Source: a plasmid
Strand: one strand, 5' to 3'
Sequence record: NZ_CP093377.1
Length of the DNA stretch: 64,000 bases
Positions 11,272 through 40,600 of the stretch are shown in pieces (the stretch's first letter is position 1; each line of letters begins with the position of its first letter). The position numbers were made by a program, and so were the translations under genes. The notes below the pieces were generated by a model. That model ran no database searches. It was not told the origin of the DNA and was given only the letters and a program-made list of their open reading frames with translations.

Positions 11272-11275
11272 GTAG
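11114..11275 (+). CDS. hok: Hok/FlmA-family type-I toxin
   Basis: [53 protein letters not shown] is near-identical to Hok/FlmA. Confidence 0.9.
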
Positions 11276-11285
11276 CAACCTGGAG

Positions 11286-11306
11286 GCGGGGGAAACCCCG
11301 CCTTTT
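11286..11306 (+). terminator. rho-independent terminator / hok mRNA 3' fold-back element
   Basis: ggcgggg-gaaa-ccccgcc followed by tttt. Confidence 0.6.
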
Positions 11307-20942: not shown

Positions 20943-22342
20943 GCCTGAATAAAAACCTGAAAACCCGGCGCAAGCAGCTGGCCATTCTTGCCGCCGTTAT
21001 CGTGGGAGGTGCCGCCGCCACGAGCGGCGTTATCTGGTACGGGCAACATCAACAGGAACAGAAACAGCCCGCGCCGGTTGCCACCCCAAACATGACCGGT
21101 GTGGTCACGGCAGCGTTTAACCAGCAGGTTAATGATGCCGCACTGGCACAGCAGCAGGCCAAGACCTCCGCACTTGAGGACAAGCTCACCACGCTCACCC
21201 AGCAGTTTGTACAGAACAAGCTCACTACCGAGCAACAGCTGGCTAAAAAGGATGAAGAGATTCAGCGCCTGAATGACCAGCTTACGAAAGCCCCCGGCAG
21301 CAACGTGACCACTGGCCAGCAGACACCACCTGGCGGTCAGAACGGAACACCACTCCCCGGTCCCGTTGCTGCCGGTCAGGCCCGGCCACCCGAATACACC
21401 GTGACCCCCGCAGGCACACCGGCCGCCACTGGTGTGAATATGGGGCAAGGCGCAGCGTTCTACCCGGGCGGCTCTGGCCAGAGAGTGACAGGTGGGCTGA
21501 GCACCACAAAGTTCAGCTATGAAAGCCTGAAGAAAAAGCCAACGAAACTGCCCTGGATTCCGTCAGGCTCCTTCTCAGACGCCATCATGATTGAAGGGGC
21601 CGACGCCAACGCCAGTGTTACCGGCCAGCAGAACACCCAGCCCGTCACCATCCGCCTGCTGGGCAATATCCAGATGCCAAACAACAAAGAATACAGCGCT
21701 GACGGCTGCTTTGTGGTGGGGGAAATCTGGGGCGACATCTCCAGCGAGCGCGGGATTGTCCGGACGAAATCAATCAGCTGCGTACTGAAAAACGGCAAGC
21801 ACGTCGATATGGAATTCGATGGCCACGTCAGCTACCAGGGTAAAGGCGGTGTTCGCGGCAAGCCTGTTATGCGAAACGGCATGATTGTCGGCTACGCGGG
21901 GGCTGCAGGCCTCCTGTCAGGTTTTGGTGAAGGTATCAAATCTGCGGCAACACCATCCGTCGGCCTCGGTGCCACAGCGGATGTCGGTGCCGGCGACGTG
22001 TTTAAGCAGGGTATAGGCGGCGGAGCCAGTAAGGCGGCCGACACGCTGAGCCAGTACTGGATTAAGCGCGCCGAACAGTATCACCCGGTCATTGATATCG
22101 GCGCTGGCAACCTGGTAACTGTGGTCTTCCAGAAGGGCTTCCGCCTTGAAACCATCGAGGATGCCGATGACGCGAAAGCGAAAGAGGAACTGCAGAAAGC
22201 CGACAACGCCGCGCAGAGCTCCGTCACTCCGCAGCCTGCGAGCCAGACCACTGCATCCAGTACCACCTCAGCCGGCAACATCAACCCTGATGACGTTCTC
22301 CGCCAGGCCAGTCAGCTGCGCCTCGGTGACACAATCAACTGA
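20939..22342 (+). CDS. traB: TraB (VirB10-like)
   Basis: 467 aa with an N-terminal transmembrane helix, coiled coil and Pro-rich linker. Coupled to traK. Confidence 0.85.
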   Translation: MSLNKNLKTRRKQLAILAAVIVGGAAATSGVIWYGQHQQEQKQPAPVATPNMTGVVTAAFNQQVNDAALAQQQAKTSALEDKLTTLTQQFVQNKLTTEQQLAKKDEEIQRLNDQLTKAPGSNVTTGQQTPPGGQNGTPLPGPVAAGQARPPEYTVTPAGTPAATGVNMGQGAAFYPGGSGQRVTGGLSTTKFSYESLKKKPTKLPWIPSGSFSDAIMIEGADANASVTGQQNTQPVTIRLLGNIQMPNNKEYSADGCFVVGEIWGDISSERGIVRTKSISCVLKNGKHVDMEFDGHVSYQGKGGVRGKPVMRNGMIVGYAGAAGLLSGFGEGIKSAATPSVGLGATADVGAGDVFKQGIGGGASKAADTLSQYWIKRAEQYHPVIDIGAGNLVTVVFQKGFRLETIEDADDAKAKEELQKADNAAQSSVTPQPASQTTASSTTSAGNINPDDVLRQASQLRLGDTIN

Positions 22343-22348
22343 GGACTT

Positions 22349-22501
22349 ATGAAAAATAAAGAGGAACAAAACCAAAAAAGAGTACCTGTCAGCTCTCCTT
22401 TTCGTGAGTTCATTGCCGTAGCCCTGTTCCTTGTCGCAATTGCAGGTGTCTTTTTAATGGCCAAATGCATGGTTTTCGGAATTAGTTTATCAATGAAATA
22501 A
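22349..22501 (+). CDS. small membrane protein (50 aa) in the traP/trbD position
   Basis: ATG 6 bp after the traB stop. One transmembrane helix. Below the ORF-track cutoff. Confidence 0.4.
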   Translation: MKNKEEQNQKRVPVSSPFREFIAVALFLVAIAGVFLMAKCMVFGISLSMK

Positions 22502-22552
22502 CCCCTCTGTTTGAGGCCATATATCCCCTTCCGAATTCACCCGGAGATACCC

Positions 22553-23092
22553 ATGAATAAAAGCATTATCGGCATGCTGCTGTGCAGCGCACTGACCGGC
22601 TGCGCCGGTCTCAATTCTGATTTCGACTGTAACAAGACCGCGACCGACCAGTGCCTGACCACCGGTGAGGCCAACAAGCTGGCCGCTCAGGGTAAAAGTC
22701 TGGATGACCTGACGGCCGAAAAAAACGCAAAAAAGCCTGCGGGTGAAACCCTGCCGGCACTGCGCAATTCGGCACCGGTCGTGAATCCGTTCCGTCCTGT
22801 CTCCGTCGTAGCAACCGGAACCACCGCCGCCAGGCCTCTGACCACTGCGCCGGCGAAAACATCCGGCACACTGGTCACGCCGCTGGCCACGACGAGTCAT
22901 GCGACCCCCGTGCCGGTTAACACGGCAGGCCGTGTTCCGGTTCAGCGTATTCCTGACGCCACGCAGCGCCTGTGGATTGCCCCCTGGGTGGACACGGACG
23001 ACAACTTCCATCAACCGGCAGTGGTCGAGTTCGTGAAGAACAAATCTCACTGGGATGAGAGCTACCGCGTTATCGGGGAGGGTGGGGAATGA
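22553..23092 (+). CDS. traV: TraV lipoprotein
   Basis: Lipobox LTGCAG. Alignable with F TraV (CNKTATDQCLTTGEANKLA..., LWIAPWVDTDDNFHQP). Confidence 0.85.
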   Translation: MNKSIIGMLLCSALTGCAGLNSDFDCNKTATDQCLTTGEANKLAAQGKSLDDLTAEKNAKKPAGETLPALRNSAPVVNPFRPVSVVATGTTAARPLTTAPAKTSGTLVTPLATTSHATPVPVNTAGRVPVQRIPDATQRLWIAPWVDTDDNFHQPAVVEFVKNKSHWDESYRVIGEGGE

Positions 23093-23343
23093 GCAGCCAC
23101 TACGTTTCCGCCAGGAACGGCGTCGATCATCTGGTGAAATCATTCCCCCATACACGGAAAGGAACGGCGCAAATCACTGCCGCACAGTCAGTCGATACCG
23201 ACGATGAAACGCTGGCTGTTCTGAGCGTGAGCTGTGGCTGGCAGATTAAAACTGCCGGTGATGCACCGCACACCGGTCAGATGAACGAAGAGAAACTACG
23301 TCGCCTTGAGTTAATCCGGGCCGCTGCGGAGGGTCGAAAATGA
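23089..23343 (+). CDS. hypothetical protein in the traR position (no Cys4 zinc finger)
   Basis: 84 aa, coupled between traV and traC. Confidence 0.5.
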   Translation: MSSHYVSARNGVDHLVKSFPHTRKGTAQITAAQSVDTDDETLAVLSVSCGWQIKTAGDAPHTGQMNEEKLRRLELIRAAAEGRK

Positions 23344-25949
23344 GTTTTGTCGACAACCTGTTGGATATGCTGAAAAACGGGAAAGAGGAAGACGGTGCCG
23401 CCACGGCCCGCGAGAATCTTTCCCAGACATGGGGCTACCCGTCCCTGGTTGCGGCGCTGCCTTACCGGTATTACGACGACACCAATGAGATTTTCGTCAA
23501 CGCCGGCTCTGCAGGCTTCATCATGGAAGCCGCCCCGCTGCCCGGCGCGAACGAACAGGTGATGGCCGCGCTCGATGACATGCTGCGCAAAAAACTGCCC
23601 CGCCAGACTCCCGTCACCGTCATCATGCTTGCCAGCAAGTGTGTCGGGGAACGTATCGATCGCGGTGTGAGTAACGACATGTGGAAAGGAGGGATGGCCG
23701 ATCACCTCAATAAAATCACCCGCGCGTTCTGGCAGCGCTCTGCGCTGCACGGTCTGGCCAACGAACGCGAATACCCGCTTTACCTGCGTAACTACCGCAT
23801 CTTTCTTGTCTATGGTCAGCCGCTGAAGCGCGCCTCCCAGACACAACGGGTGATTGATGACCTGGTTCAGATCCGCAACACCATCCGCGTCTCCCTGGGC
23901 GCTGCGCGCATCGACAGCGTGAACGTTGATGTGTACGGTTTCCTGTCTGCGGTACGCGAGCAGATGAACTACCGCCAGGAACAGGTACTGACGTCCTCCG
24001 GGGACTACAACGAGGATGAAAAGCTGAACCGCCAGGTGGTTGATCAGGGGATAGGGCTTGATGTCTATCCGTCGCATCTCCGGATGACGTTACCCGAAAC
24101 CATCGACGCGCGCGGGACACGGTTGCCGGCATCGGCATGTCGCATCATTAACATGCAGCTTGCCAAAACGCCTAAACGCTTCGCCCTGTGGCAGGGGGCG
24201 GACAACCTGCAGAACATTCGCTTTCCTGACCTCGGAATACCCTGTCCCTTTATGCTGACCTGGACAACGGAGCTGGAAGAGCAGACCAAAAGCCAGAGTG
24301 AGGCATTTCGCAAAGATACCGATTTGTCAAAAAAGGCCAGCTCAGCCTACGCCGCACTTTTCCCCGGTACCAAAAGGGCCGCAGAGGAATGGCGACGTAC
24401 CCGTGAGCAACTGAACAATAACGAAATTGCACTCTGCAACACGTACTTTAACCTGACCCTGTTCGCGCCGGACAACAATACTGACGCACAGGCCTGTGAG
24501 CTGGCCGCCGTGAACGTGTTCCGTAAGAACGAGCTGGAGATGGTAACGATACAGTACCAGCAGATGCGTAACTGGCTGGCCGGCTTCCCGTTCGTCATGC
24601 AGGAAGGGATGTGGGAAGACCTGAAAACAACAGGCGCAACGCTGCGCGCCAAGTCATGGAACGCGGTGAGTCTGATGCCGATCGTGGCAGAACGCCAGCT
24701 GTCGAATGTAGGTATGCCGCTGCCCACCTACCGCAACCAGGTTGCATTCTACGACATGTTTGGTGAGGAGAACGGCAGCACCAACTTTAACATCGCTGTG
24801 ACCGGCACGTCTGGCGCGGGTAAATCCTTCCTGACACAGGGTATCCTGCGCGACGTGCTGAATGCCGGGGGATACGCCTGGGTTATCGACATGGGTGACA
24901 GTTATAAAAACTACTGTCATCAGGCCGGCGGGGTTTATCTCGATGGCGCTAAACTGCGCTTTAACCCGTTCGCCAACGTCAAAGATATCAAGCACTCTGC
25001 TGAAGGGATTGTGCGTCTGCTGACGGTACTCGCCAGCCCGACGCAGCCGCTTGATGGTGTCTGCGAGGCGATCCTGCAGAAAGCGGTAATGGATGCGTGG
25101 GAGAAGAGGGCAAATAAAGCCCGTATCGACGACGTTCATAATTACCTGACCAGTGAGGATGTGAATCAGGCGTTTGCAGACAAGCCAACCATCATCGCGC
25201 GTCTCGCTGAGCTGGCCATGCTGCTCGATACCTACTGCACCTGGGGACCTGACGGTGAATACTTTAACGCCGACACCCCGACGCTCGATGGTGAAACCCG
25301 CTTCGCGGTGCTGGAGCTGCTGAGCCTGGAAGACAAGCCGAAGCTGCTCTCGTCCATCCTGTTCTCGCTCATTCTGGCGATACAGGAAAAGATGTACCAC
25401 AGCCCGCGCGACCTCAAAAAAGTCTGCATCATCGACGAGGCCTGGCGTCTGCTGGGTGGCTCTAACCCACACGCGGCAAGGTTTATCGAAACCGGCTACC
25501 GCACCGTGCGTCGTCACCGTGGGGCGTTTATTACCATCACCCAGGGCATCAAGGACTTCAGCGCCAGTAAGGAAGCAGAAGCCGCCTGGAACAACAGCTC
25601 CACCAAAATCACCCTGCTGCAGGATGCTAAGGCGTTTAAACAGTACCTTGCCGATAACCCGGATCAGTTCTCGGACATGGAAAAAGAAGTTATCCGTGGC
25701 TTCCAGCCAGCCCTGCAGACCGGCTACAGCTCCCTGCTGATAAACGCCGGTGAATACAGCTCCTTCCACCGTCTGTTCGTCGACCCCGTCACCCGCGCCA
25801 TGTTCAGCTCGCGTGGTGAGGACTTTGCCTTCATGCAGAAATTGCAGAAAGAAGCCGGGGCCACTGCGGAAGAAGCGGCATATCTGCTGGCGGAGAAGAA
25901 ATTCGGCAATGAACTTCGTGAACTTGAAGAATGGGTGAAAGCAGCATGA
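23340..25949 (+). CDS. traC: TraC (VirB4-family ATPase)
   Basis: 869 aa. Walker A GTSGAGKS. Extensive identity with F TraC. Confidence 0.95.
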   Translation: MSFVDNLLDMLKNGKEEDGAATARENLSQTWGYPSLVAALPYRYYDDTNEIFVNAGSAGFIMEAAPLPGANEQVMAALDDMLRKKLPRQTPVTVIMLASKCVGERIDRGVSNDMWKGGMADHLNKITRAFWQRSALHGLANEREYPLYLRNYRIFLVYGQPLKRASQTQRVIDDLVQIRNTIRVSLGAARIDSVNVDVYGFLSAVREQMNYRQEQVLTSSGDYNEDEKLNRQVVDQGIGLDVYPSHLRMTLPETIDARGTRLPASACRIINMQLAKTPKRFALWQGADNLQNIRFPDLGIPCPFMLTWTTELEEQTKSQSEAFRKDTDLSKKASSAYAALFPGTKRAAEEWRRTREQLNNNEIALCNTYFNLTLFAPDNNTDAQACELAAVNVFRKNELEMVTIQYQQMRNWLAGFPFVMQEGMWEDLKTTGATLRAKSWNAVSLMPIVAERQLSNVGMPLPTYRNQVAFYDMFGEENGSTNFNIAVTGTSGAGKSFLTQGILRDVLNAGGYAWVIDMGDSYKNYCHQAGGVYLDGAKLRFNPFANVKDIKHSAEGIVRLLTVLASPTQPLDGVCEAILQKAVMDAWEKRANKARIDDVHNYLTSEDVNQAFADKPTIIARLAELAMLLDTYCTWGPDGEYFNADTPTLDGETRFAVLELLSLEDKPKLLSSILFSLILAIQEKMYHSPRDLKKVCIIDEAWRLLGGSNPHAARFIETGYRTVRRHRGAFITITQGIKDFSASKEAEAAWNNSSTKITLLQDAKAFKQYLADNPDQFSDMEKEVIRGFQPALQTGYSSLLINAGEYSSFHRLFVDPVTRAMFSSRGEDFAFMQKLQKEAGATAEEAAYLLAEKKFGNELRELEEWVKAA

Positions 25950-26359
25950 GTGAACAACAGGACAAGCCGTATGAAGGCGATACCGTCAACGATGGTGCAA
26001 CGATCGCCGGCAAAACATCCCGCTGGGTTAAGGCCTGCATGCTGGGGCTGGCAGGATTGCCGGGCATGACAGGTGTGGCATATGTTACGGCAAAAGCCGT
26101 CACACCGGAGGTGGTGGTCTTCGATATGAAGGGAACCGTTGACCTGTTTATGCAGCAGTCCGCGCAGCTGCAGCTCGATGAGGACAAAGCCCGGGTGCTG
26201 ACAACGCGTTTCAATAGCGCGCTGTCAGACAGTCTCGGTGAATGGCAGGCCTCACATAACGCCATCATTCTGGTTAAACCGGCGGTGATGAGTCCGCAGC
26301 GGGATATCACGAATGAGATCCGTGCCGACATTGCGCGCCGCACTCAGGGGGGGCAGTGA
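25946..26359 (+). CDS. trbI: TrbI
   Basis: 137 aa, coupled to traC (ATGA). Membrane-anchored. Confidence 0.75.
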   Translation: MSEQQDKPYEGDTVNDGATIAGKTSRWVKACMLGLAGLPGMTGVAYVTAKAVTPEVVVFDMKGTVDLFMQQSAQLQLDEDKARVLTTRFNSALSDSLGEWQASHNAIILVKPAVMSPQRDITNEIRADIARRTQGGQ

Positions 26360-26991
26360 AAAGACCACTGAAGCTGATGGGTATGATGCTGCTGATGCTC
26401 TCCGCCGGCAGCGGGGCGAAAGATCTCGGAACCTGGGGCAACGTCTTCGAGCCTGCAGAGCAGGACATGCTGGCGTTTATCCAGAATCGCCTGAAGGGAA
26501 TGGAGCAGACGGGTGAACTTGACCGCCTGCGCAAAGAAGCAACGGAAAGAGTGAAGGAGCATGCGGTACGCCCGACGCCGGTGGAAGGGCTCACAAAAGC
26601 GAAGGAATACCGAAGCTTTGCCTGGGACCCGACATTTACCGTGAAGGAAACGATCACTGACATGCAGGGCAATGTGATCGCCCGGAAGGGTGATACGGTC
26701 AATCCTCTGGATAAGGTGCCCTTCAGCCAGGTGCTCTTTTTTATCGACGGCGATGATAAGGAGCAGGTGAGCTGGGCACGACAACAGCTCGCCGGTCAGA
26801 TCAGCGTGAAGGTCATCCTGGTAAACGGCAACATCAAAGAAACCAGTGATGCACTGAATGAACGTATCTACTTCGACCAGTCTGGCGTACTGACCCGTAA
26901 ATTCGGTTTTGAACACATCCCCGCGCGGATATCGCGCGACGGCCGCGTGATGAAGGTGGAAGAAATACCTGTTAAGGGAGACGGTAAATGA
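26356..26991 (+). CDS. traW: TraW
   Basis: 211 aa with signal peptide. Alignable with F TraW. Confidence 0.85.
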   Translation: MKRPLKLMGMMLLMLSAGSGAKDLGTWGNVFEPAEQDMLAFIQNRLKGMEQTGELDRLRKEATERVKEHAVRPTPVEGLTKAKEYRSFAWDPTFTVKETITDMQGNVIARKGDTVNPLDKVPFSQVLFFIDGDDKEQVSWARQQLAGQISVKVILVNGNIKETSDALNERIYFDQSGVLTRKFGFEHIPARISRDGRVMKVEEIPVKGDGK

Positions 26992-27338
26992 TCTTTCTGC
27001 TTGTACTGTCCGGTATAACAGGGATCGCAGGTTGTGCGATTACAACAGCATGGTTACCGGTGAATCTGCGCTGGCAGGGAGTCCAGTGCGCGGTATTTAC
27101 CCTGATTATTCAGGGATGCATTCTTAAGGTCATACCACTCGACACGGACGGTAGCGGACTTTTGATTGCTGCCGGACTGATGCTTTCCCAGTGGTTCGCC
27201 CCCCTTATCGCCAGAGAGACAAGGAAATTGAGCGTGCATTTCAGGATACCTTCAGTGCCCGGTTATCTGCTGATGTACATCCTGTGCCTGGTGCTGATCG
27301 GTGCCAGCTGGTTTCCCATCTGGATGGTTTTGAGATGA
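26988..27338 (+). CDS. polytopic small membrane protein (first gene of the traW-traU insertion)
   Basis: 116 aa, 3-4 predicted transmembrane helices. ATGA overlap with the traW stop. Confidence 0.5.
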   Translation: MIFLLVLSGITGIAGCAITTAWLPVNLRWQGVQCAVFTLIIQGCILKVIPLDTDGSGLLIAAGLMLSQWFAPLIARETRKLSVHFRIPSVPGYLLMYILCLVLIGASWFPIWMVLR

Positions 27339-27353
27339 GATAATACCGGTTGC

Positions 27354-27707
27354 TTACCAGAAGCTTTTGAGAAGCAAAATAGTCAGCCCAAAAAATACAA
27401 CGGTGAAACAGATAGCAAGAATGAAATACGGAAAGCTGTGATGTGTGGAATCACTACCTGCTATCTGCCGCAGGTTTAAATCAGTAATTAAAGATGCCCA
27501 TGCGAGCACAAATCCGAAGCAAATAATCAACAATGCCAGGAAAACAAAACCAGCGACAGACGTCACCGGAATGCATGTTCTCGCGCCCGTGCTGAGAAGT
27601 GCAAACAAGGAGCTGGAGGCAATTAAATCCCTCACCAGATTTCGGGTTGCTTCAAGTTGATTATCAGTTGGCTGTATACGCCTGAGCCTGTCCATCATTT
27701 TCCCCAT
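27354..27707 (-). CDS. polytopic small membrane protein encoded antisense to the tra operon
   Basis: 117 aa, 3 predicted transmembrane helices. Convergent with the preceding ORF. Confidence 0.45.
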   Translation of the reverse strand: MGKMMDRLRRIQPTDNQLEATRNLVRDLIASSSLFALLSTGARTCIPVTSVAGFVFLALLIICFGFVLAWASLITDLNLRQIAGSDSTHHSFPYFILAICFTVVFFGLTILLLKSFW

Positions 27708-27783
27708 TCTTTCCGTTCCCGTGTTTTAGCCAGTCCGCAAGAATTCTGATGATGCACGGTAAAATACATTAAAGGTACTCAAA

Positions 27784-28176
27784 ATGACTGCAACAACGTT
27801 AGGTGACCTGTTTCCTGAAATGCGCCAGGCGGTCACTTCTCATCGCCGCTACGCCAGAAGACCTTGTAAACCAGCTGAAATATCTCCGCGTATGGGGACA
27901 GCAGAACGCCTGAAGACACTGTATCCGGAATTTGACTCCTGGCATCCGGTCCTTGTGACCAAAGCCTGGCTCCACTGGTGTGAGCAGAACCAGCAGGACA
28001 GCCGGGAGCCGTCGAAACGAGATGAACGTTTCCCGGACTACATCATTCACCTCTTACTGGAGAACATGCGGGCCGAGGACAGCGCGAAACGTAAAAAGGG
28101 CCCGACGCTGTCACTTTCCGGGCGTCTCGACAGGCTGTTTGCAGGCGAAGGGCAGGAGAACGCCGAATGTCACTGA
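27784..28176 (+). CDS. hypothetical protein, paralog A (YPEFDSWHP...AWLHWCEQN motif)
   Basis: 130 aa. Shares a ~55-aa domain with the next ORF. Confidence 0.5.
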   Translation: MTATTLGDLFPEMRQAVTSHRRYARRPCKPAEISPRMGTAERLKTLYPEFDSWHPVLVTKAWLHWCEQNQQDSREPSKRDERFPDYIIHLLLENMRAEDSAKRKKGPTLSLSGRLDRLFAGEGQENAECH

Positions 28177-28403
28177 GACACAATACTGGAACCAAAGGCA
28201 GTGAAGAGGAAGTGAATCGCCTCTGTCAGCTGTACCCTGAAATTGCATCATGGCAACCGGCACTGATCGCCGGTGCCTGGCATCAGTGGTGCGCTGAGAA
28301 CCCGCATCTGCCGGCGATGCCGGAAGTACGTGACGAGGCGTTTCCCCTGTACCTCGTCAGGCTTATCCGCAACAGAATGGAGGAGATGAACGCATGGCGT
28401 TAA
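28167..28403 (+). CDS. hypothetical protein, paralog B (YPEIASWQP...AWHQWCAEN motif)
   Basis: 78 aa. Start overlaps the stop of paralog A. Confidence 0.5.
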   Translation: MSLRHNTGTKGSEEEVNRLCQLYPEIASWQPALIAGAWHQWCAENPHLPAMPEVRDEAFPLYLVRLIRNRMEEMNAWR

Positions 28404-29425
28404 TCAGCTGTTTCACCGGCCCTCAGGGGCTGCAGGGTGTGCTCGCCTGTTTGCGCGATACTGAGGGCATGACCGGTATTCTGGTCGTGGTTGCGCTACT
28501 CGCTGGCTGGATTGTTGTTCAGTACGTGGCATGTGCACGGCGTGAACGTCTGGCGCGGGAGAGCAGACCGGGAATACCCGTCCCTCTGGCGCAATTTGGT
28601 AATGCCCGTCATGCAACTGCTGTGCATGACTTTGCTAACCGGAATTATTACCAGGTGATGCTGGCCGAGATGGAAAAAGCGCTGTTTTCGGCAGGCTATG
28701 AATTGACGCGGGATGCATCTCGCTGCACACGGCTGGCAAATACAGACAGTCGTGACATCAGCCGGAAAGTGACCCGAGTGCGCCACCGCTATATGACCCC
28801 GCTCATTTCAGAACAGATGCTGAATGACAGCATTGATGATGCCATGAAAAATGGTTCCGCAGCTGAATGGCTGAACCTGCTTATCCAGGGCAGTGAGCGG
28901 GAAGGGTGGTATATCACCCGGACCGCAGGGGCGGCAGGAGCTGTTCTGAGCGACAGGCAAAAATGTCGCTGGCCGCTCAGGCAGGTGATGATCACCCTGA
29001 AGTCAGACAGCCTCGTCATTACCCGTGATTTCGTTCAGGGGCTGAACGCAGCGGCCGACGCTGTAAGCAACATGGCGTTCCCCGACATGGCTGATGAACC
29101 CGACCTCAGCGCTGTGCCTGTGAACATCTGTGGACTTCAGGTGACACTGATGCGCCAGCTCTGCAGCACCCCGCCGGGATTTTTCCCGGATGAAAGCGGC
29201 AGCAGTGTACCGGACGAATTGTTCAGTCAGATGCCTGAGCTGAAGTATGGTGAGAAGCGTATTGTCGTCTTTGCGCAGATAACGTCAGCACCTGCGACAG
29301 ACGTTCTGGCCCGATTCATCATAACCGTCGGTGACCGTATTGCGGCAGGAGAGGAATATGCGGCTGATTACGATGATGACAACGGTTATGCCTTTATCTT
29401 CCAGCGGACCAGCAGACCCCGCTGA
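28394..29425 (+). CDS. hypothetical 343-aa protein with an N-terminal transmembrane anchor
   Basis: Start overlaps the previous stop. Transmembrane segment GILVVVALLAGWIVVQYV. No recognisable motif. Confidence 0.5.
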   Translation: MALISCFTGPQGLQGVLACLRDTEGMTGILVVVALLAGWIVVQYVACARRERLARESRPGIPVPLAQFGNARHATAVHDFANRNYYQVMLAEMEKALFSAGYELTRDASRCTRLANTDSRDISRKVTRVRHRYMTPLISEQMLNDSIDDAMKNGSAAEWLNLLIQGSEREGWYITRTAGAAGAVLSDRQKCRWPLRQVMITLKSDSLVITRDFVQGLNAAADAVSNMAFPDMADEPDLSAVPVNICGLQVTLMRQLCSTPPGFFPDESGSSVPDELFSQMPELKYGEKRIVVFAQITSAPATDVLARFIITVGDRIAAGEEYAADYDDDNGYAFIFQRTSRPR

Positions 29426-29529
29426 TTCAACCGCGCTGCCCTTCAGGATGTTCGGTGCTCACTGCGTTGCGCTCCGCCTCAGCCTGAATGTCATCCCGGT
29501 TTCCGATTAACCCCCGACCAGGTAACGCC

Positions 29530-29745
29530 ATGAAAAAAGACCCTGATACTGAAAAGGGCCGGCATGTTACAGCCGTTCGTCATGATGAAAAATCGGCATT
29601 ACGGCTCAATGCCATTCTTGCAGAGAATCCCCTTTATTATCCCTCGCTCGTCTTACGGGCTGGCCTGCTGGCCCTTGAGAACATGAGCAAAGAACAACGG
29701 CTGACGATCGTCATGAAAGCCGCGACTAAGCCCGAAACACACTGA
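29530..29745 (+). CDS. small ribbon-helix-helix-like protein
   Basis: 71 aa from MKKDPDT. Beta strand plus two helices pattern (HVTAVRHDEKSALRLNAILAEN...SLVLRAGLLALE). Confidence 0.4.
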   Translation: MKKDPDTEKGRHVTAVRHDEKSALRLNAILAENPLYYPSLVLRAGLLALENMSKEQRLTIVMKAATKPETH

Positions 29746-29806
29746 CCTTTCTGTTTTAACTGGCCCTCCCGCCGTCCGGTGGCTGCGGCACACCCGGAGA
29801 TACCCC

Positions 29807-30130
29807 ATGACACACCCTGAATATATCGGGCCGGTGACGGTTACCCGTGACCGCAACGGTTTCTGGACGCACCCACGCTATTTTACCCCCGCCAGTGATG
29901 AGGCCGGGCAGTCAGAATTCGGCGACTGGATGCGACTGCACAACCTGACCTGCGCCATCCGCTGGATGGAAAATGATGCGCCTCCGCAGGTGATCGCCGC
30001 CTGGGAAAATGGCGTAGCCGACATCAACGACTGGCAGCCCTCGGCGCCTGCGGGTGATGGCTGGTTCATTGGCTCCATTCATGACACTGAGGACGGCCCG
30101 GTCTGTGTGTGGCTCCGGGAGGTGAAATGA
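29807..30130 (+). CDS. hypothetical protein translationally coupled to traU
   Basis: 107 aa. Its stop overlaps the traU ATG (ATGA). Confidence 0.5.
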   Translation: MTHPEYIGPVTVTRDRNGFWTHPRYFTPASDEAGQSEFGDWMRLHNLTCAIRWMENDAPPQVIAAWENGVADINDWQPSAPAGDGWFIGSIHDTEDGPVCVWLREVK

Positions 30131-31125
30131 AGCGCTATTCATGGCTGGCCGGTGTGTTGCTGGTTATGTTGTCCTGGATGCCCGCGCAGGAAACGGCAGC
30201 AGCCAGTAACGCCGGTGACGGACGCTGGGTGAATCCCATCACTGACGTCTGCTGGAAATGCCTGTTTCCGATGACGCTCGGTAATATCCAGCTGGCTTCC
30301 GGGCCTCAGAAAGACACAACCAACCCGTCTTCACCCATCCAGATTTGCCCGGTGGGGATTCTGTACCGCATCGGTCTGGCCATCGGATTCTGGGAGCCGA
30401 TGGCGATGGTGGACGTGACCCGTGAGCCGGGCGTCATGGTTAACATGGGCGGCTTTAAAATCGATCTCGGACGAACGGGAACGGGAACCGCAGGGCAGAG
30501 TGACCGGCCCGCTGCCGGCGCGTTCTACCACGTCCACTGGTATAAGTACCCTCTCATTTTCTGGCTGAACATCATCACCAGTCTGGGCTGTCTGCAGACC
30601 GGCGACATGGATATCGCCTATCTTTCCGAAGTCGATCCTCTCTGGAATGACAGCACGCTCTCAATGCTGATTAACCCCGAGGCAGCACTGTTCGGCAACC
30701 TGATAGCTCAGGGCGCGTGCGCAGCTGATGCCGCCGCCGCGTCAGCGGGCCTGCCGCTCTCGCCGTTGTTCTGGTGTGCAGGGAGTCAGGGGGCGATGTA
30801 CCCGCTGACGGGCTATACCAGTGGTGAGTTTTCTCCGCTGGAGGCCTCATTGCTCGTCGGCGAGCGAATGGCGTTCAAGATGCACCGGGAAGGACTGGTC
30901 TGGAATTCTATTGGTGCAGATAACGCCGTCTGCAACCAGTATCCTTCACCCATCCTTCCCAAGGAACGATGGCGATATCAGATGGTGAACATGTATCCCG
31001 AGACGAACAACTGTCATCCCTTCGGGGCCAGTACGCAGCTGTGGGGTACAAAGCACAATTCCCCGTCCTCCAAAAAGAACTTCGGCTATCTCTTCTGGCG
31101 CAAACGTAACTGCGTCTTCCTCTAA
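30127..31125 (+). CDS. traU: TraU
   Basis: Signal peptide. Motifs WVNPITDVCWKCLFPMTLG and conserved Cys pattern as F TraU. Confidence 0.9.
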   Translation: MKRYSWLAGVLLVMLSWMPAQETAAASNAGDGRWVNPITDVCWKCLFPMTLGNIQLASGPQKDTTNPSSPIQICPVGILYRIGLAIGFWEPMAMVDVTREPGVMVNMGGFKIDLGRTGTGTAGQSDRPAAGAFYHVHWYKYPLIFWLNIITSLGCLQTGDMDIAYLSEVDPLWNDSTLSMLINPEAALFGNLIAQGACAADAAAASAGLPLSPLFWCAGSQGAMYPLTGYTSGEFSPLEASLLVGERMAFKMHREGLVWNSIGADNAVCNQYPSPILPKERWRYQMVNMYPETNNCHPFGASTQLWGTKHNSPSSKKNFGYLFWRKRNCVFL

Positions 31126-31135
31126 GGACATGACA

Positions 31136-31759
31136 ATGAAAAACGCTTATCTCCGGGCGCTGACGATCGGCGTCCTGATTGCTTTCGCACCAATGGTCGT
31201 GGCGAGCGCCCAGACTGATATTTCCGTCACTGACCACAGCTGGATCAAAGGTCAGCAGGACGCACTGGCGGCTATGAAGGACGATCTGCAAAGCCAGTCT
31301 GCCGGTTCATACGTGATACCGCAGGCGCAGCAGGATCTTATTACCCGACTACAGGGAAATATAGCGGCTCAGACCACCACGATGGGGGAAAAAGACACCT
31401 TCCCGGCGATTTACTTTGTAAGCCTCGGCATACCTCGCGAAGGCCTGCTGCCGATGCTGAAGGACGCCCGCCGTTACAACATACCGCCAACGCTGCGTGG
31501 CCTCGTCAATAACGACATGCGCCAGACTGCGGCAGCTATGTTTGAGCTGAGTAAGGAGGACAGGGACGCCGGCGTGCAAATCGATCCGACGCTGTTCACT
31601 CAGTACAACATCACCACGGTACCTGCCCTGGTGGTGACCTGTCCTGGCCACCATGACGTTATCCGGGGAAGCCTGCCCCTGAAACAGGCCCTTGAGAAAG
31701 TGGCTGAAAGCGGCGAGTGCGCGGCAACGGCACGCCATCTCCTGGAGGCCGCCCAATGA
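31136..31759 (+). CDS. trbC: TrbC
   Basis: About 207 aa with signal peptide. Position as F trbC. Confidence 0.8.
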   Translation: MKNAYLRALTIGVLIAFAPMVVASAQTDISVTDHSWIKGQQDALAAMKDDLQSQSAGSYVIPQAQQDLITRLQGNIAAQTTTMGEKDTFPAIYFVSLGIPREGLLPMLKDARRYNIPPTLRGLVNNDMRQTAAAMFELSKEDRDAGVQIDPTLFTQYNITTVPALVVTCPGHHDVIRGSLPLKQALEKVAESGECAATARHLLEAAQ

Positions 31760-33561
31760 TAAAAATGCTTTCAACTGCGCTGTTGCTGTTCCCGCTTTTC
31801 GCTGTCGCCGCTGATCCTGCCTTTGAGGCGGGTGCGAGTTTTGGTAAGGGTAACGCTGCCGCAGGAACCGGTGCTCTGAAAAATCCCGGCGCGGTCACCG
31901 GAGCGATACCGGGCTATACCGCGAACCCACCGGAAAAGGGGTATTACGGTGGTGTAAACGGGGGCGATGGCGGTCTGGCGGGAAAAGGACAGGCTGCCCT
32001 GCAGGGCAATGACGCGGCACAGTCGGTGATCAGTTCCGGCACCAAAAACCCGACCCCAGCGATTGATCCGAATGCGCCCTTTATCACTATTGGTAAAAAT
32101 GCGGAGGGTACGGCAGACGGGATCATGGATGGCAGCAGCCAGCAGTGTAAGGAAACGACTGTATCCAAATCCACCTTTGAGAAGTTCACCTGTGAGCGTG
32201 ATGCCTGGATTGAACAGAGCTGTACGCGTAGCGGCGTTCCTGGCGGTGCCATGAGTAAGCCTGTCGTAACAAGCGAAGAGGTCAGAATAAAAGTGCAGAC
32301 CGGTGGCCGAAAGTTAACGGTCACTATTCCTGAAACTATGGAAATAAACAAAGCCACGCTGTATTTCGGTAGCAATGAAAAAGGCGTTGATCAGTGGGGG
32401 ATGGAAGGTACTTTCATCAATACGAGACTCAAAATACAGAGGAACGTAAATATGCCTCTGAATTTGACCGGAGCAGTTGAGGCAGGGCAGGTCTTTACAT
32501 CCACAACTTTCTGTCCGGACATCTGTACTGGTTATACAAAGGATGCGACAGCAGATCTGATGAATGAAGCTGACGTCGTACTCATCCTTAACGTGACGAC
32601 CACCAAAATGGATTTTGAACCCTCTGTTGGCTGGTCCGAAGCATGCTCTGTCAATAAAGACAAAGCAGTGAAAACCGGCTCCGTCTGCACTTCGCCCGGA
32701 GGTAGCCGACCAGTCACGGTCGATGGCAACATCTACCAGGTAACCAGTGACTGCTGGCAATACACCGATCAGTATCTGGTCCCGTCAGGCTCAAACGGGA
32801 CGTGCGGCAGTTTGATGCAAAACCCCGCCTGTACCGTGAACGGTACAGCCTGTCAGAAAAAAAATGGTAGCTACTGCGAGCATGAGACTGTCAGCTATGA
32901 GTGCCAGAAAGTGTGGTCTTCATCGGGGCTTGTCTGTGGGGGCACCTATTTCTGCAAATCAGGTGACTGTACTGAAACCGACGGCGCGGGGGATAACGGT
33001 TTCGATACTGCCGTTGCAAAACTGGCAGGTCTTGCCTCTGCCGCAGAAGATGTGAAGGAAGATCAGATTAACGTACGTGCCTTTACCGGCGAAGTGATGA
33101 GCTGCCGAAAAGCTGTAGCTGGCTTTTCTAACTGCTGTAAAGACAGCGGCTGGGGTGCAGATGCGGGGCTTCAGCAGTGTAACAGCAAAGAAATGGCGCT
33201 GGGCAAAGCGAAAGCCAAAAAAGTGACGGTTAGCATTGGCGAAAAATGTGACCACAAAGCGCTTGGCGTTTGCATTCAGAAAAGTCAGGTTTACTGCGTT
33301 TTCCAGGGCAAGCTGGCGCGCATTATTCAGGAGCAGGGGCGGCGCGATCAGCTTCATGTGGGCTTTGGCAGCGGTGACAACCCGGACTGCAGGGGGATAA
33401 CGGTTCCGGAGTTACAGAGTATCGACTTCGACAAAATCAACTTCTCTGACTTCTACGAGGATTTGATGAAGAACCAGAAAATCCCCGATACCAGCGCGCA
33501 GGTCAGGCAGATTAAGGATCGCATCGCCGCGCAGGTGAACCAGCAGGGAGGCGGCAAATGA
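31756..33561 (+). CDS. traN: TraN (Cys-rich outer-membrane mating-pair stabilisation protein)
   Basis: 601 aa with signal peptide and many conserved Cys in the C-terminal half. Confidence 0.9.
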   Translation: MIKMLSTALLLFPLFAVAADPAFEAGASFGKGNAAAGTGALKNPGAVTGAIPGYTANPPEKGYYGGVNGGDGGLAGKGQAALQGNDAAQSVISSGTKNPTPAIDPNAPFITIGKNAEGTADGIMDGSSQQCKETTVSKSTFEKFTCERDAWIEQSCTRSGVPGGAMSKPVVTSEEVRIKVQTGGRKLTVTIPETMEINKATLYFGSNEKGVDQWGMEGTFINTRLKIQRNVNMPLNLTGAVEAGQVFTSTTFCPDICTGYTKDATADLMNEADVVLILNVTTTKMDFEPSVGWSEACSVNKDKAVKTGSVCTSPGGSRPVTVDGNIYQVTSDCWQYTDQYLVPSGSNGTCGSLMQNPACTVNGTACQKKNGSYCEHETVSYECQKVWSSSGLVCGGTYFCKSGDCTETDGAGDNGFDTAVAKLAGLASAAEDVKEDQINVRAFTGEVMSCRKAVAGFSNCCKDSGWGADAGLQQCNSKEMALGKAKAKKVTVSIGEKCDHKALGVCIQKSQVYCVFQGKLARIIQEQGRRDQLHVGFGSGDNPDCRGITVPELQSIDFDKINFSDFYEDLMKNQKIPDTSAQVRQIKDRIAAQVNQQGGGK

Positions 33562-34349: not shown

Positions 34350-34817
34350 ATGACAAAGATGCTTTTACCCCTCATCCGTGATGCAGGGCGTTTCGCCCTG
34401 TACACACTTGTCTTCGGCCCGGCGCTGTTGCTGTACGGTATTGTGATAGCCATTTCGCTTGAAGGCTCGCTGGCGGGGCAGTTTGTGAAAGAGGCGCAGA
34501 CGCTAACCGAAGGCGCGCCCGCCGGTAAGGTAATGCAGTGCATTACGCATTATGAACCGGCACCACAATCCCGGCTACCTGAGCCCGGCGAGGACGCAAG
34601 CCCCCCTCCTTATGAGTTCCCGCCGGTACAGTTTTGCCATCGTGAACCGGTTGACAGCGATCTCTGGATAAAGCCGATGAATGCAACGCTGCTCAACCTC
34701 TGGCTGACGGGCGCGCTGTTCGGCGCGGCTGTGGCTTTTCTGGCTCATCTTTATATTCATCGTTCAGCCACCTCACGGCAGATGTCGGGGGGATGGCAAA
34801 AGGAGAAACACGAATGA
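34350..34817 (+). CDS. membrane protein in the trbA position
   Basis: 155 aa with 3 transmembrane segments. Confidence 0.5.
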   Translation: MTKMLLPLIRDAGRFALYTLVFGPALLLYGIVIAISLEGSLAGQFVKEAQTLTEGAPAGKVMQCITHYEPAPQSRLPEPGEDASPPPYEFPPVQFCHREPVDSDLWIKPMNATLLNLWLTGALFGAAVAFLAHLYIHRSATSRQMSGGWQKEKHE

Positions 34818-36312: not shown

Positions 36313-37669
36313 GGCGCTTATTACGGCAGGGATTGTGTTCTTCTCAGGCCTGGCTGCTCTGCCTGCTCAGGCGGACGTCAATGGTGACCTCAACGGCTTC
36401 TTTGGCAAGCTGGGCTACAGCGGCAACGTCTCTCAGGCGCAGGCATGGCAGGGGCAGGCGGCCGGGTACTTCTCGGGCGGCTCTGTCTACCTCCGGAATC
36501 CCGTCAAAAGCGTCCAGCTGATCTCGATGCAGCTGCCTTCCCTGAATGCCGGCTGCGGCGGCATCGACGCCTATCTCGGGTCGTTCAGTATGATCAGCGG
36601 TGAGGAAATTCAGCGATTCGTTAAGCAAATCATGAGCAATGCCGCCGGCTATGCATTCGACCTGGCTCTGCAAACAATGGTGCCGGAGCTGAAGCAGGCG
36701 AAAGACTTCCTGCAGAAGCTGGCGAACGACGTGAACTCAATGAACATGAGTTCGTGCCAGGCCGCGCAGGGCATCATCGGCGGGTTGTGGCCCGTAACGC
36801 AGGTTTCCCAGCAGAAAATCTGCCAGGACATTGCCGGCGAAACCAACATGTTTGCTGACTGGGCGGCCTCCCGCCAGGGCTGCACCGTCGGAGGACAGGG
36901 CGACAAAGTCACGGCCAAAGCCGGCGATGCAGAAAAAGACCAGGTACTGAAAAACAAAAACCTTATCTGGGACACGCTCAGTAAGAACGGGCTGCTTGGT
37001 AACGACCGCGCCCTGAAGGAGCTGGTCATGAGTACCGTCGGCTCCATCATTTTCAACAAGAACGGCGATGTGACAATCCTGACGCCGCTGGTCGATAACC
37101 GCGACCTGATTAAAGTTCTGATGCGCGGGGGAACAGCGAAGGTCTACGGGTGCGATGAAGCAACACTCTGTCTGGGGCCTGTCGTCACTAACCTGACGAT
37201 TACTGAGTCCAGCGCTCTGGTCACACTGGTCAAAAACCTGATGCTCTCGATGCAGAACAAACTTGTCGATGACAAACCGCTGACCGATCAGGAAAAAGGC
37301 TTCGTGAACACCACCTCTGTGCCGGTACTGAAATACCTGACCAATGCCCAGAGTATGGGGATGAGCGCCACGTACCTCCTGCAGGTTTCCGACTTCATTG
37401 CCCAGGACCTGATGATTCAGTACCTCCAGGAACTGGTGAAACAGGCAAGCCTGTCTCTGGCTGGTAAGAACTTCCCTGAAGAAGCTGCCGCAAAACTACG
37501 CGACAACATCATTCATGCGCAGGGACTGCTGGCCGACATGAAGCTGCAGTCTGCAGCCGATCAGAACGCGCTGGACGGTATCGACCGCAACATGCAGTAC
37601 CTGCAGCAGCAGGTGTCCACCATTGTTTCAGGCTCCTATCAAAGCAACTATCACTGGGGTGATCGCTGA
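36305..37669 (+). CDS. traH: TraH
   Basis: 454 aa with signal peptide. Alignable with F TraH. Confidence 0.9.
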   Translation: MIKALITAGIVFFSGLAALPAQADVNGDLNGFFGKLGYSGNVSQAQAWQGQAAGYFSGGSVYLRNPVKSVQLISMQLPSLNAGCGGIDAYLGSFSMISGEEIQRFVKQIMSNAAGYAFDLALQTMVPELKQAKDFLQKLANDVNSMNMSSCQAAQGIIGGLWPVTQVSQQKICQDIAGETNMFADWAASRQGCTVGGQGDKVTAKAGDAEKDQVLKNKNLIWDTLSKNGLLGNDRALKELVMSTVGSIIFNKNGDVTILTPLVDNRDLIKVLMRGGTAKVYGCDEATLCLGPVVTNLTITESSALVTLVKNLMLSMQNKLVDDKPLTDQEKGFVNTTSVPVLKYLTNAQSMGMSATYLLQVSDFIAQDLMIQYLQELVKQASLSLAGKNFPEEAAAKLRDNIIHAQGLLADMKLQSAADQNALDGIDRNMQYLQQQVSTIVSGSYQSNYHWGDR

Positions 37670-40600
37670 TGCTTGAGATATACACCATTTATGGCGGAGG
37701 AATGTGGAAAACGGCGCTGGACGCCGTTGTCACCCTTGTCGGTCAGAATACCTTCCACACCTTAATGCGTATTGCCGGCACCTTCGGGGTGCTGGCAGTA
37801 TTGCTCACTTTCATCAAACAACGTAACCCGATGGTCTTCGTCCAGTGGCTGGCGATCTTCATGATCCTGACGTCCATCCTGCTGGTACCGAAACGTTCAG
37901 TACAGATAATTGACCTCTCAGACCCGGCTGCGGTGTGGAAAACCGATAATGTACCGGTCGGTCTGGCGGCCATCGCGTCACTGACGACCAGCATCGGTTA
38001 CAAAATGGCATCGGTGTACGACATGCTGATGGCCAGACCTGACTCGGTAACCTACAGCAAGACCGGTATGCTGTTTGGCTCGCAGATTGTGGCGGAAACC
38101 AGCGACTTCACCACGCAAAACCCGGAGCTGGCTCAGATGCTGCCGGACTACGTGGAAAACTGTGTTATCGGCGATATTCTGCTGAACGGTAAATACACCA
38201 TCAATCAGCTGCTCAATTCCACTGACCCGCTGACGCTGATAACCAGTAACCCCAGCCCGCTGCGGGGCATCTTTAAGATGACCTCCACCTCGCGTCAGTT
38301 CCTGACCTGTCAGCAGGCGGCAACGGAGATACAGAAGCTGGCGAATACCGACGTCAATCCGGGCAGTGCGACATTCACCTGGCTGACGCGGAAGGTCTTC
38401 GGCAACAAGCTGAATGGCGCGACGCTTCTGGCCAACGCTATGGGGGAAAGCTACGGATTCTTCTATTCCGGGGGAATGACGGCTGCGCAGATCATGAAGA
38501 ACAACATCACGAACAGTGCAGTTCGGCAGGGAATTAAGGGTTTTGCCGCTCGCTCATCCGATACGGCTAACCTGCTTAATCTGGCCACCGAGAACGCTGC
38601 CACGAAACAGCGTCTCAGCTGGGCGGCGGGTAATGAGCTTGCCACCCGCACTCTGCCGTTTGCACAGTCCCTGCTGATGCTTATCCTGGTGTGCCTGTTC
38701 CCGCTGATGATTGCGCTGGCCGCGTCAAACCACACGCTTTTTGGCCTGAACACCCTGAAAATATACGTTTCCGGGTTTATCTATTTCCAGATGTGGCCGG
38801 TGATGTTCGCCATTCTTAACTATGCCGCCAACTACTGGCTGCAGAGTCAGTCCGGGGGTACGCCCCTGGTGCTGGCCAACAAGGATGTGGTGGCACTGCA
38901 GCATTCGGACGTGGCGAATCTGGCAGGCTACCTGGCACTGTCCATTCCGGTGCTCTCGTTCTATCTGACCAGAGGGGCGGCGGCAATTGGCTCTCAGGTT
39001 ACCGGCAGCATACTCAGTTCAGGGGCATTCACCTCTGCCGGTGTGGCAGCGACCACTGCGGACGGAAACTGGTCGTTTAACAACATGTCGATGGACAATG
39101 TCAGCCAGAACAAGATGGACACGAACCTGGTGCAGCGCCAGGGGCAGCAGACGTGGCAGGCGGATAACGGCTCCACGCAGACGCAGACGGCCGGTGGCCA
39201 CACGGTTATCGACGGCTCAGGCGCAATGTCGAATCTGCCGGTGAACATGAAGCTCAGCCAGCTGGCAAGCAGTGGTTTCCAGGAGTCAGCCCGTCAGTCG
39301 CAGGTTCAGGCGCAGACGGCGCTCGATGGCTACAACCATAGCGTCACCAGTGGCTGGTCGCAGCTCTCACAGCTTTCTAATCAGACAGGTACCAGCGACA
39401 GCCTGACCCGCGGCAGTGAAAACAGCCAGGTCACTAACGCAACGCGCGGCGCCAGCATGATGATGTCGGCCGCTGAAAGCTATGCGAAAGCGAACAACAT
39501 CTCGACGCAGGAAGCCTATAACCAACTGATGTCAAAATCACAGGAAGGCAGTTTCAATGCTGGCGGCAAAATTTATGCCAAAGCTGATTCAGGCGATTCA
39601 GCAATAGGGAAAATTGGCAAATGGACTGTGGGTGCTAGCGGTGGGATTGAGGGGCACATGGGAGTTGAATATAAAGGCTCCGATGGCAGCTCTCATGGAA
39701 CACAAGACACAAACTCTCTTGCTCAAGATATGCGACACGACAAAAACAGTCAGGCAGTTAATGACTTCCGCCAGGGTATGGATATGGTTAAAAGTAGCCG
39801 TATCACCGATGGCGCGAATCATTCCGAGAATGCTGCAAGCAGCAATGTTCAGCAGCTGGCCGCAACGCTTAATGATGCTGAGAGCCAGTATCATCAGTAC
39901 ACCACCAGTTCGACGCAGAGTAGCGAGTTCAGCAGGATGGCCACCATTGCGCAGAACCAGAGCGCGAGCCTCGATACGAACTATACGCAGGAGTTTGTGG
40001 ACTGGGCGGCCAATAAATACGGCGATAAGGCACAGTCCATGCTGACAAGTGCGCCGTCGGCGCGTGAAGCGGCGATGGAGTTCGTAAATGAACGGCTCAA
40101 ACCAGAAATCATGGGGGATTATCAGCAGGGGCGTTCAGATCTTACCAGCGGTCAGGAGCATGCAGCATTCAGTGGGGAGCATATCGTTCAGCCAGCACGT
40201 GGCAGTCAACAGGTATCAGGTTCATCTGGTCATGATGCTGGAGTCAGCTACAGCTCTCAGGATGGTGGTGCTCACAGATCGGGAGGTGTTGGCAGCGCCC
40301 AGACTTACGGAACGACTCAGGGCGCTGAATATGTAGGCCAGCAGGGTGGGAATTATTCTGCCAGAACAGACGATTCTGTTTCGCCGGGTATGGAGCAGTC
40401 AACTATTCATCAAGGACAAGCAGCCGGACAGAGAAGCAGCTCGGGTAATATCACCTCGTCGGCAGGCATGGTTGTTGCCGGTGGACGCACCACGGCAGAT
40501 GAAAGAACCGGCCATATTGCAGAATCGCACTCGGAGTTCCATCATTCAGGAGCCGTCAGGGAGCAAGGAAGCATGCATGGCCAGGAGAGTGAAGTTACTC

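Follow-up and report, generated by a model that had tools for sequence, protein, structure and literature searches.

The plasmid stretch analysed here, 64,000 nucleotides of sequence record NZ_CP093377.1 (hereafter the window), carries an F-type transfer operon that runs through traC (23340-25949), trbI (25931-26359), traW, traU, trbC, traN and further genes. Between traW and traU lie seven open reading frames (ORFs), here termed O1 to O7, which are missing from the F plasmid, where traW (10749-11381) directly overlaps traU (11378-12370; locus L007). A previous sequence-only reading had described them as one 3.1-kb insertion of unknown function, and its inventory was recovered in full: seven ORFs, of which two encode small membrane proteins, one of them antisense, two are tandem paralogues and one encodes a 343-amino-acid (aa) membrane-anchored protein. 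The comparison with related plasmids moderately favours a more gradual history, in which the block is a lineage-specific accessory-gene slot of MOBF12 group D transfer operons that was built in layers. The locus comprises the following features:

traW, 26356-26991, plus strand: upstream boundary gene, with a weak Pfam TraW_N match and 94-96% identity to the annotated TraW of pECL_A-type plasmids
O1, 26988-27338, plus strand: polytopic membrane protein of 116 aa, a TrbA-like positional analogue
O2, 27354-27707, minus strand: antisense membrane protein of 117 aa, a homologue of F ArtA
O3, 27784-28176, plus strand: soluble protein of 130 aa, the first copy of a tandem duplicate
O4, 28167-28403, plus strand: protein of 78 aa, the second copy of the tandem duplicate
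O5, 28394-29425, plus strand: hypervariable protein of 343 aa with a predicted inner-membrane anchor
O6, 29530-29745, plus strand: small protein of 71 aa; the alternative start at 29488 would give 85 aa
O7, 29807-30130, plus strand: protein of 107 aa, assigned to the phage/plasmid family phrog_1372 and coupled to traU
traU, 30127-31125, plus strand: downstream boundary gene (Pfam TraU, E 2e-107)
O1-O2 cassette, 26992-27787, no strand: 796 bp missing from pECL_A, with the direct repeat AAATGA at both ends

Both ends of the block are joined to the operon by ATGA overlaps, in agreement with the earlier description: the bases at 26988-26991 hold the stop of traW and the start of O1, and those at 30127-30130 the stop of O7 and the start of traU. 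The internal coupling that had been proposed for the ORFs starting at 27784, 28167 and 28394 also holds, with 10-nt overlaps and good Shine-Dalgarno sequences at both joints; the O4 ATG (28167) overlaps the O3 stop (28174-28176) downstream of GGAGAA, and the O5 ATG (28394) overlaps the O4 stop (28401-28403) downstream of GGAGGAG. The start of O7 (29807) is preceded by GGAG. O3 is uncoupled from any upstream sense ORF in the window because the antisense O2 sits between. Promoter and terminator scans within the slot returned nothing better than shuffled sequences, and Rfam gave no match inside it. With their overlapping or Shine-Dalgarno-preceded starts, the slot genes are positioned for translation from the tra transcript together with the pilus-assembly genes.

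The seven ORFs, antisense O2 included, are real genes under purifying selection. All of them are kept in related plasmids, and pairwise Nei-Gojobori ratios of non-synonymous to synonymous substitution rates (dN/dS) lie below 1 (0.16-0.18 for O1, 0.20-0.50 for O2, 0.07-0.18 for O3, 0.24-0.30 for O4, 0.29-0.40 for O5, 0.14-0.21 for O6 and 0.13-0.34 for O7), apart from one near-identical O4 pair, in which the value of 1.11 stems from very few substitutions. For comparison, the boundary genes gave 0.06-0.19 (traW) and 0.04-0.11 (traU). Scans of the seven ORFs against Pfam, NCBIfam and PADLOC yielded nothing significant, and O7 was the sole match in PHROGs. When the O3/O4, O5, O6 and O7 families were compared as profiles with 25 F Tra/Trb proteins, no match was obtained, the pairing of O2 with ArtA being the only one in this comparison; a match to known trb-type genes, which the sequence-only reading had envisaged for all seven ORFs as the contrary outcome, was found for O2 alone.

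The gene order of the window is that of pECL_A and pENTAS01, and a homologue of the Arc-family regulator EntFR is encoded at 18108-18746 (minus strand) with 98% identity to EntFR of pECL_A; the window belongs to a MOBF12 group D F-like plasmid of the pECL_A/pENTAS01 type. Plasmids of this group reside in Enterobacter, Pantoea, Erwinia, Rahnella and Kluyvera; they lack TraJ, FinO and TraY and carry EntFR, a double ribbon-helix-helix regulator, at the position of traJ, and ORFs of the kind discussed here were already drawn for the group D prototype as ‘without detectable homology’ (Fernandez-Lopez et al. 2016, PMC5102898). Small F genes without a counterpart in group D are those for TraY, TraP, TrbD, TrbG, TraQ, TrbE and TraR, and neither trbA nor artA is found after traF. 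A megablast search with the region retrieved 138 plasmid records (111 from Enterobacter); the full seven-ORF block is present in 15 of them at ~91% identity, and most of the others, pECL_A of E. cloacae ATCC 13047 among them, have a shorter block with five genes.

For a survey of the slot, 55 loci, one per species, were fetched from a genome collection by TraW alignment, and TraW, TraU and the homologues of O1-O7 were located in each; slot lengths derive from tblastn boundaries and are hence approximate. In group D, delimited by a TraW at least 57% identical to that of the window, the junction is filled in 20 of 20 loci, over 385-3446 bp, across Enterobacter, Leclercia, Atlantibacter, Citrobacter, Siccibacter, Rahnella, Ewingella, Pantoea and Acerihabitans, whereas the gap between traW and traU measures at most 71 bp in 18 of the 20 loci of the F/Klebsiella type. 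Three arrangements recur among the filled junctions: (i) minimal slots of 385-451 bp (Rahnella sp. AA and Acerihabitans), in which a lone O6-family gene overlaps the traW stop; (ii) the order traW, O6-like, O5-like (one to three copies), O7-like, traU in Pantoea, Erwinia and Ewingella; and (iii) the order traW, a single O3/O4-type gene (97-106 aa), O5, O6, O7, traU in Enterobacter, Citrobacter, Leclercia and Atlantibacter, the tandem of O3 and O4 being limited to the pECL_A sub-lineage. Slot content thus varies, with O5 ranging from absent to three copies, O7 absent from several loci and O3/O4 confined to one branch. Arsenophonus and some Erwinia and Pantoea loci (L054, L055, L057-L059, L062 and L063) carry at the same junction one or two genes for periplasmic DsbA/DsbG-like CxxC thioredoxins of 213-284 aa. 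These, together with the filled slots of group D, mark the traW/traU junction as a recurrent site of accessory genes. Judging from the survey, a filled junction is ancestral to all of group D, whose members range from Enterobacter to Pantoea, Erwinia and Rahnella, and the order in which the genes accrued can be read from the same loci. The single insertion proposed earlier accordingly holds for the 796 bp of O1 and O2, a recent arrival, and not for the remainder of the block. Enterobacterial-type F-like TraW was also encountered on contigs of metagenome-assembled genomes binned as Dysgonomonas, Lachnospiraceae, Geobacteraceae, Oxalobacter and Collinsella (L048-L051 and L053), in some cases with 96-100% identity to F TraW; these are probably mis-binned plasmid contigs.

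Compared with pECL_A, the extra 796 bp (26992-27787) of the window lie exactly between the traW stop and the O3 start. The AAATGA direct repeats of this cassette occupy 26986-26991 and 27782-27787, its GC content is 46-50% versus ~56% in the flanks, and among the 72,556 plasmids of PLSDB it is confined to Enterobacter, with O1 in 17 and O2 in 16 of them. A transposon-type insertion was considered and rejected, as neither inverted repeats like those of insertion sequences (ISs) nor other IS features were found at the cassette, just the 6-bp repeat. The promoter scan of the slot gave no convincing promoter for antisense O2. O1 has about four hydrophobic segments and is close in length to F TrbA (116 versus 115 aa), and sequence comparison of the two was negative (BLASTP E 7; shuffle test p 0.13; no match in hhalign). 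O2, with two hydrophobic segments, aligns with F ArtA in BLASTP (E 9e-6), by Smith-Waterman score (76, compared with 29+-5 for shuffles, none of 3000 of which reach 76) and in hhalign (82% probability; E 1e-5, 56 aligned columns). When 156 small membrane ORFs taken from 59 loci were compared, ArtA matched only another ArtA and the O2s, and the relation is reciprocal; in both proteins, a soluble N-terminal segment precedes the hydrophobic ones (42-79 and 90-117 in O2, 42-77 and 77-100 in ArtA). By these alignments, O2 is a homologue of F ArtA, situated at traW/traU, unlike ArtA itself, which lies between traF/trbA and traQ. O1 and O2 are best called a trbA/artA-like pair, O1 by virtue of its size, multi-pass character and position. 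At the position of F trbA, after traF, the window encodes a 155-aa protein with two hydrophobic segments (34350-34817), which is as hypervariable as O5.

O3 and O4 are 43% identical over 56 aa (BLASTP E 7e-15), which bears out their earlier description as paralogues and places their origin in a tandem duplication. The family alignment shows a conserved N-terminal motif, MTATTLGDLFP, and a Trp-rich core, LYPEIxSWxPVLVTxAWLxWC...EPExRDERFPxYLV; the single-copy form (97-106 aa), found in pENTE01, Citrobacter, Leclercia and Atlantibacter, ends in EMxxWR. O3 has kept the N-terminus of the family and has a new tail, and O4 has kept the C-terminus and has a new head. A 102-aa family member, P0158, joins an O3-type N-terminus to an O4-type C-terminus and is either the ancestral single-copy form or a recombination product of both tandem copies. 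The family is limited to enterobacterial group D plasmids and has no match in Pfam, NCBIfam, PHROGs or PDB profiles.

The single N-terminal transmembrane helix of O5 is consistent with the membrane anchor described before. In its AlphaFold 2 (AF2) model, which has a predicted local distance difference test score (pLDDT) of 77, the N-terminal part (residues ~1-185) consists of this helix (~23-49) and a helical domain (~70-170), followed by an alpha/beta C-terminal domain (~190-343, its modelled fold spanning ~195-337). The C-terminal domain is optional, as forms of 181-187 aa occur in many conjugative plasmids. By the positive-inside rule, the body of O5 is probably on the cytoplasmic side. Sequence and profile searches of the PDB with O5 gave no match. 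Homologues form 39 clusters in a collection of 5.8 billion proteins, the named ones all from Enterobacter, with identities down to 36%; tblastn widens the family to 172 plasmids, including those of Pantoea, Erwinia and Pectobacterium, at 25-30% identity. In several Pantoea plasmids (L025, L027 and L030-L032), the gene is present in two or three diverged tandem copies, and the family therefore duplicates repeatedly.

Relative to pECL_A, O5 is 47% identical, compared with 95% for TraW, 90% for O3, 96% for O4, 86% for O6, 80% for O7 and 97% for TraU, and the O5 alignment contains mosaic blocks; the protein is hypervariable. A similar divergence from pECL_A is seen at the TraM-like gene (17680-18057, 47%), TraN (31756-33561, 62%), TraG (37669-40977, 79%) and the 155-aa gene after traF (48%), and the TraS-like polytopic gene after traG (40983-41561) has no detectable similarity to its 229-aa counterpart in pECL_A. 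The window plasmid probably belongs to another mating-pair or exclusion specificity group than pECL_A, to judge from these genes. Between pECL_A and pRHBSTW-00542_2, TraN (94%), TraG (98%) and the TraS-like protein (96%) are conserved and O5 is only 45% identical; the O5 type is therefore independent of the TraN, TraG and TraS types. Two further associations were examined and dropped. Co-evolution of O5 with the 155-aa gene, hinted at by three to four plasmids, is contradicted by CP123379.1, in which O5 is 50% and the 155-aa gene 93% identical. A polymorphic toxin-immunity pair formed by the O5 C-terminal domain and O6 does not fit either, as their identities vary apart (32% and 86% in pECL_A, 93% and 82% in pRHBSTW) and many plasmids are without the domain.

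O6 is the most widely conserved slot occupant: its family is represented in 24 of the 34 occupied slots and supplies the sole gene of the minimal ones; the window protein matches an Erwinia slot protein with E 2e-5. Its start is most likely the ATG at 29530 (71 aa), as RefSeq annotates relatives, the upstream ATG at 29488 being less likely. The core of the family reads like a ribbon-helix-helix protein (xTxVRxDExxxxxLRxxxxExPLYxESxVLRAALQxL), and Pfam RHH_1 matches 1 of 17 family members (E 0.022). A PDB profile search with O6 gave no match, and the best hhalign alignments, to strand-helix regions of TraY repeat 2, EntFR and RelB, are non-significant (E 0.04-0.12). O6 may be a small DNA-binding regulator or adaptor, possibly of the ribbon-helix-helix type.

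O7 matches phrog_1372 over residues 5-106 (PHROGs E 2.4e-37) and is a member of this family, which comprises 1100 clusters at 50% identity in a library of 1.84 billion proteins. Its AF2 model (pLDDT 90) has no fold match in the PDB, where sequence and profile searches with O7 were likewise without a match. The family has invariant Trp/His/Asp/Cys residues. O7 is 49% identical to an Erwinia slot protein. Members occur in 82 phage records: the homologue of mEp213 lies in the pL operon just downstream of N, that of PY54 follows a Lar-like gene at a distance of four annotated genes, and others are found, always among small accessory genes, in Rac-type prophages, the P1-like phage D6 and phages of Klebsiella, Erwinia and Burkholderia. 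Plasmid records with the family number 2045. About 170 of them carry it at an identity of at least 60%, and in those inspected it stands immediately upstream of traU, as in the window. Approximately 1500 are from Klebsiella, and most of the matches listed have the same DUF2726 neighbour; in pKpQIL (pKpQIL-6e6, L009 2160-2468), the Klebsiella plasmid inspected, the homologue overlaps the stop of the DUF2726 gene and adjoins a phospholipase-D-family nuclease, near repA and just upstream of the IncFII replicon.

Among the best 150 O7 representatives, ~40% are at least 200 aa long, and Pfam scans of 60 of these longer proteins revealed fusion partners of the O7 domain. Three proteins carry Lar, on either side of the O7 domain and each time with a score that exceeds the gathering threshold; two carry an Rv2179c-like 3'-5' exoribonuclease; and a Tad2-like domain (E 1.5e-22), DHH/DHHA1 and KTSC occur in one protein each. 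O7 itself matches no Pfam family, neither the Lar zinc ribbon nor the Tad2 domain, both of which are only fusion partners elsewhere, and the identifiers of its homologues had no match in the literature searched. By association, O7 may reasonably be proposed as a protein that modulates the host or its defences. A bolder proposal, which we consider rather unlikely, is that the O7 family as a whole, with its members in plasmids and many temperate phages, is a large counter-defence or host-modulating family, that its invariant residues could form a ligand- or partner-binding site, that its fusions mean action on restriction or nucleotide-signalling immunity and that in group D the gene was drawn into the transfer operon, its product being made whenever the cell mates.

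According to the reading favoured here, the slot would have been filled in three layers. The oldest, extending from Pantoea, Erwinia and Rahnella to Enterobacter, would consist of the O6 family, the O5 family and O7. In Enterobacter, Citrobacter, Leclercia and Atlantibacter, the O3/O4 family would have been gained right after traW, with a tandem duplication in the sub-lineage of the window. The 796-bp cassette of lower GC content would then have been inserted exactly at the traW stop, recreating the ATGA coupling. The slot genes would be accessory and not structural parts of the secretion machine: O5 may provide a fast-evolving interaction or specificity surface at the cytoplasmic face of the membrane, O6, a small protein, may serve in regulation or as an adaptor, O7 may modulate the host or its defences in the manner of proteins that phages express early, and O1/O2 may be equivalents of the dispensable trbA/artA pair of F. 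Several points weigh against this reading or parts of it. The conservation of O6 throughout the lineage would also fit a transfer protein that is essential and specific to it; the anti-defence link of O7 is one of association, through neighbourhood and fusions, and some of the predicted fusions may stem from errors in gene calling; the tra operon is transferred last, a poor position for a gene that is to protect incoming DNA; the cytoplasmic orientation of O5 derives from the positive-inside rule alone; the slot lengths are approximate; and the roles given to all seven genes are inferred.

The main rival is that the slot genes, at least O6 and perhaps O5, are essential secretion components or assembly factors of group D that replace F genes which this group lacks. 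It would account for the occupation of every sampled group D slot, including the minimal ones with O6, for the tight translational coupling to traW and traU and for the absence of several small F genes, and DsbA-like maturation factors do occur at the same junction in other lineages. Among apparently conjugative plasmids, however, the content of the slot varies widely in O5 copies, the optional C-terminal domain, O7 and O3/O4; the families are unlike any F Tra/Trb protein in profiles, O2 and ArtA excepted, and O7 is found mostly outside transfer operons, so that essential components seem improbable overall, if still worth serious consideration. Clearly more doubtful is a role for O5 as a determinant of plasmid-plasmid specificity, in entry exclusion or mating-pair formation, comparable with TraS/TraG or TraN. 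The identity of ~47%, at a distance where core Tra proteins reach 92-99%, is reminiscent of TraN, TraG and the TraS-like and TraM-like genes, and the O5 alignment is mosaic, yet a TraS-like polytopic gene is already present after traG, the O5 type does not track those of TraN, TraG or TraS, and short forms without the variable C-terminal domain exist. O5 also differs from TraS in having a single transmembrane helix, with a probably cytoplasmic body, and another location, and hhalign gave no match between the two; co-variation with TraG or the TraS-like gene was not seen.

An establishment or anti-defence module had been suggested by the sequence-only reading, and in its present form this explanation takes the block for counter-defence cargo whose products neutralise restriction or immune systems or enter the recipient. 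What remains of it concerns O7, whose relatives populate early and accessory regions of phages (the pL operon of mEp213, the vicinity of the Lar-like gene in PY54) and are fused to Lar in three cluster representatives above the Pfam cutoff and to a Tad2-like domain in one; the hypervariability of O5 would be compatible with an arms race. This association is indirect and does not extend to the other genes: PADLOC models are without a match, O3-O6 are limited to this plasmid lineage and not seen in phages, and the slot lies in the trailing tra operon, whereas the anti-defence genes known from plasmids are concentrated in the leading region, the first part to enter. We regard cargo of this kind as unlikely, slightly more so than essential secretion components. 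The proposal that O1 and O2 form a toxin-antitoxin-like or holin-like membrane pair has to be abandoned almost entirely; the two are convergent, small and hydrophobic, but O2 is homologous to F ArtA, the layout copies that of trbA-artA, pENTE01 has O1 without O2, and no such family is matched in Pfam, NCBIfam, PHROGs or PADLOC.

Elsewhere in the window, the traB-traV spacing (22342-22553) is only ~200 bp. In pECL_A, the corresponding gap (L068 9522-11030) houses four accessory ORFs, one of them of the MgtC/SapB family, and pRHBSTW-00542_2 holds homologues of at least two of these (h95 at 74%, MgtC at 86%). The window plasmid thus has nothing in this second variable slot of its operon. Rfam matches were obtained for the sok antisense RNA of hok/sok at 10945-11116, upstream of oriT and the tra operon, and for a repBA-type regulatory pseudoknot at 53812-53933, just downstream of the tra region.

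Carbapenemase genes and other resistance genes are commonly found on F-like plasmids of the IncFII(pECLA) type in Enterobacter, and one in three ORFs of the transfer operon of these plasmids has no name. What looked like an odd insertion becomes a defined, lineage-wide accessory slot whose history can be reconstructed; two of its genes now have a name, O2 as an ArtA homologue and O7 as a member of phrog_1372, and two testable candidates are singled out, O5, which behaves like known specificity genes, and O7, with relatives fused to counter-defence domains. Modulation of transfer or host immunity by either of them would bear on the spread of these plasmids; if neither has such an effect, the slot would hold further dispensable passengers of the tra operon, like trbA and artA.

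Several known systems resemble parts of the slot. The small tra/trb accessory genes of MOBF12 groups A-E are likewise poorly conserved, lineage-restricted ORFs among pilus-assembly genes; F itself differs in having no slot at traW/traU, and TrbD, TrbG, TrbE, TrbJ, TrbF, TraP and TraR of F are unrelated to O3/O4, O5, O6 and O7 in profile comparison. The DsbA/TrbB-type thiol-disulfide genes are, like the slot genes, accessory genes at the traW/traU junction of F-type secretion systems, and O1-O7 differ from them in having neither a thioredoxin motif nor such a signal peptide. The closest parallel to O1/O2 is the trbA-artA pair of F, in which, likewise within the tra operon, a sense gene for a polytopic membrane protein (115 aa) has artA, a convergent antisense gene for a membrane protein (104 aa), one base further on. 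No function is assigned to TrbA or ArtA of F, and insertion mutants in trbA and artA reportedly showed no transfer phenotype (Kathir & Ippen-Ihler 1991). The two pairs differ in that O1 has no detectable sequence similarity to TrbA, in their sites (traF/traQ versus traW/traU) and in that O1/O2 is a rare, recent insertion into group D, which is otherwise without trbA and artA. The O7 domain is linked to Lar/RalR and Tad2 by its fusions and by phage accessory regions shared with Lar-like genes; O7 contains neither domain, and the link is one of association only. O7 also bears no similarity to TraR of F or to DksA, but in its setting it is reminiscent of TraR, which is likewise a small tra-operon protein with lambdoid-phage early-gene relatives (lambda Orf73) and has its target in the host, not in the pilus (Gopalkrishnan et al. 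2022, PMC9239242).

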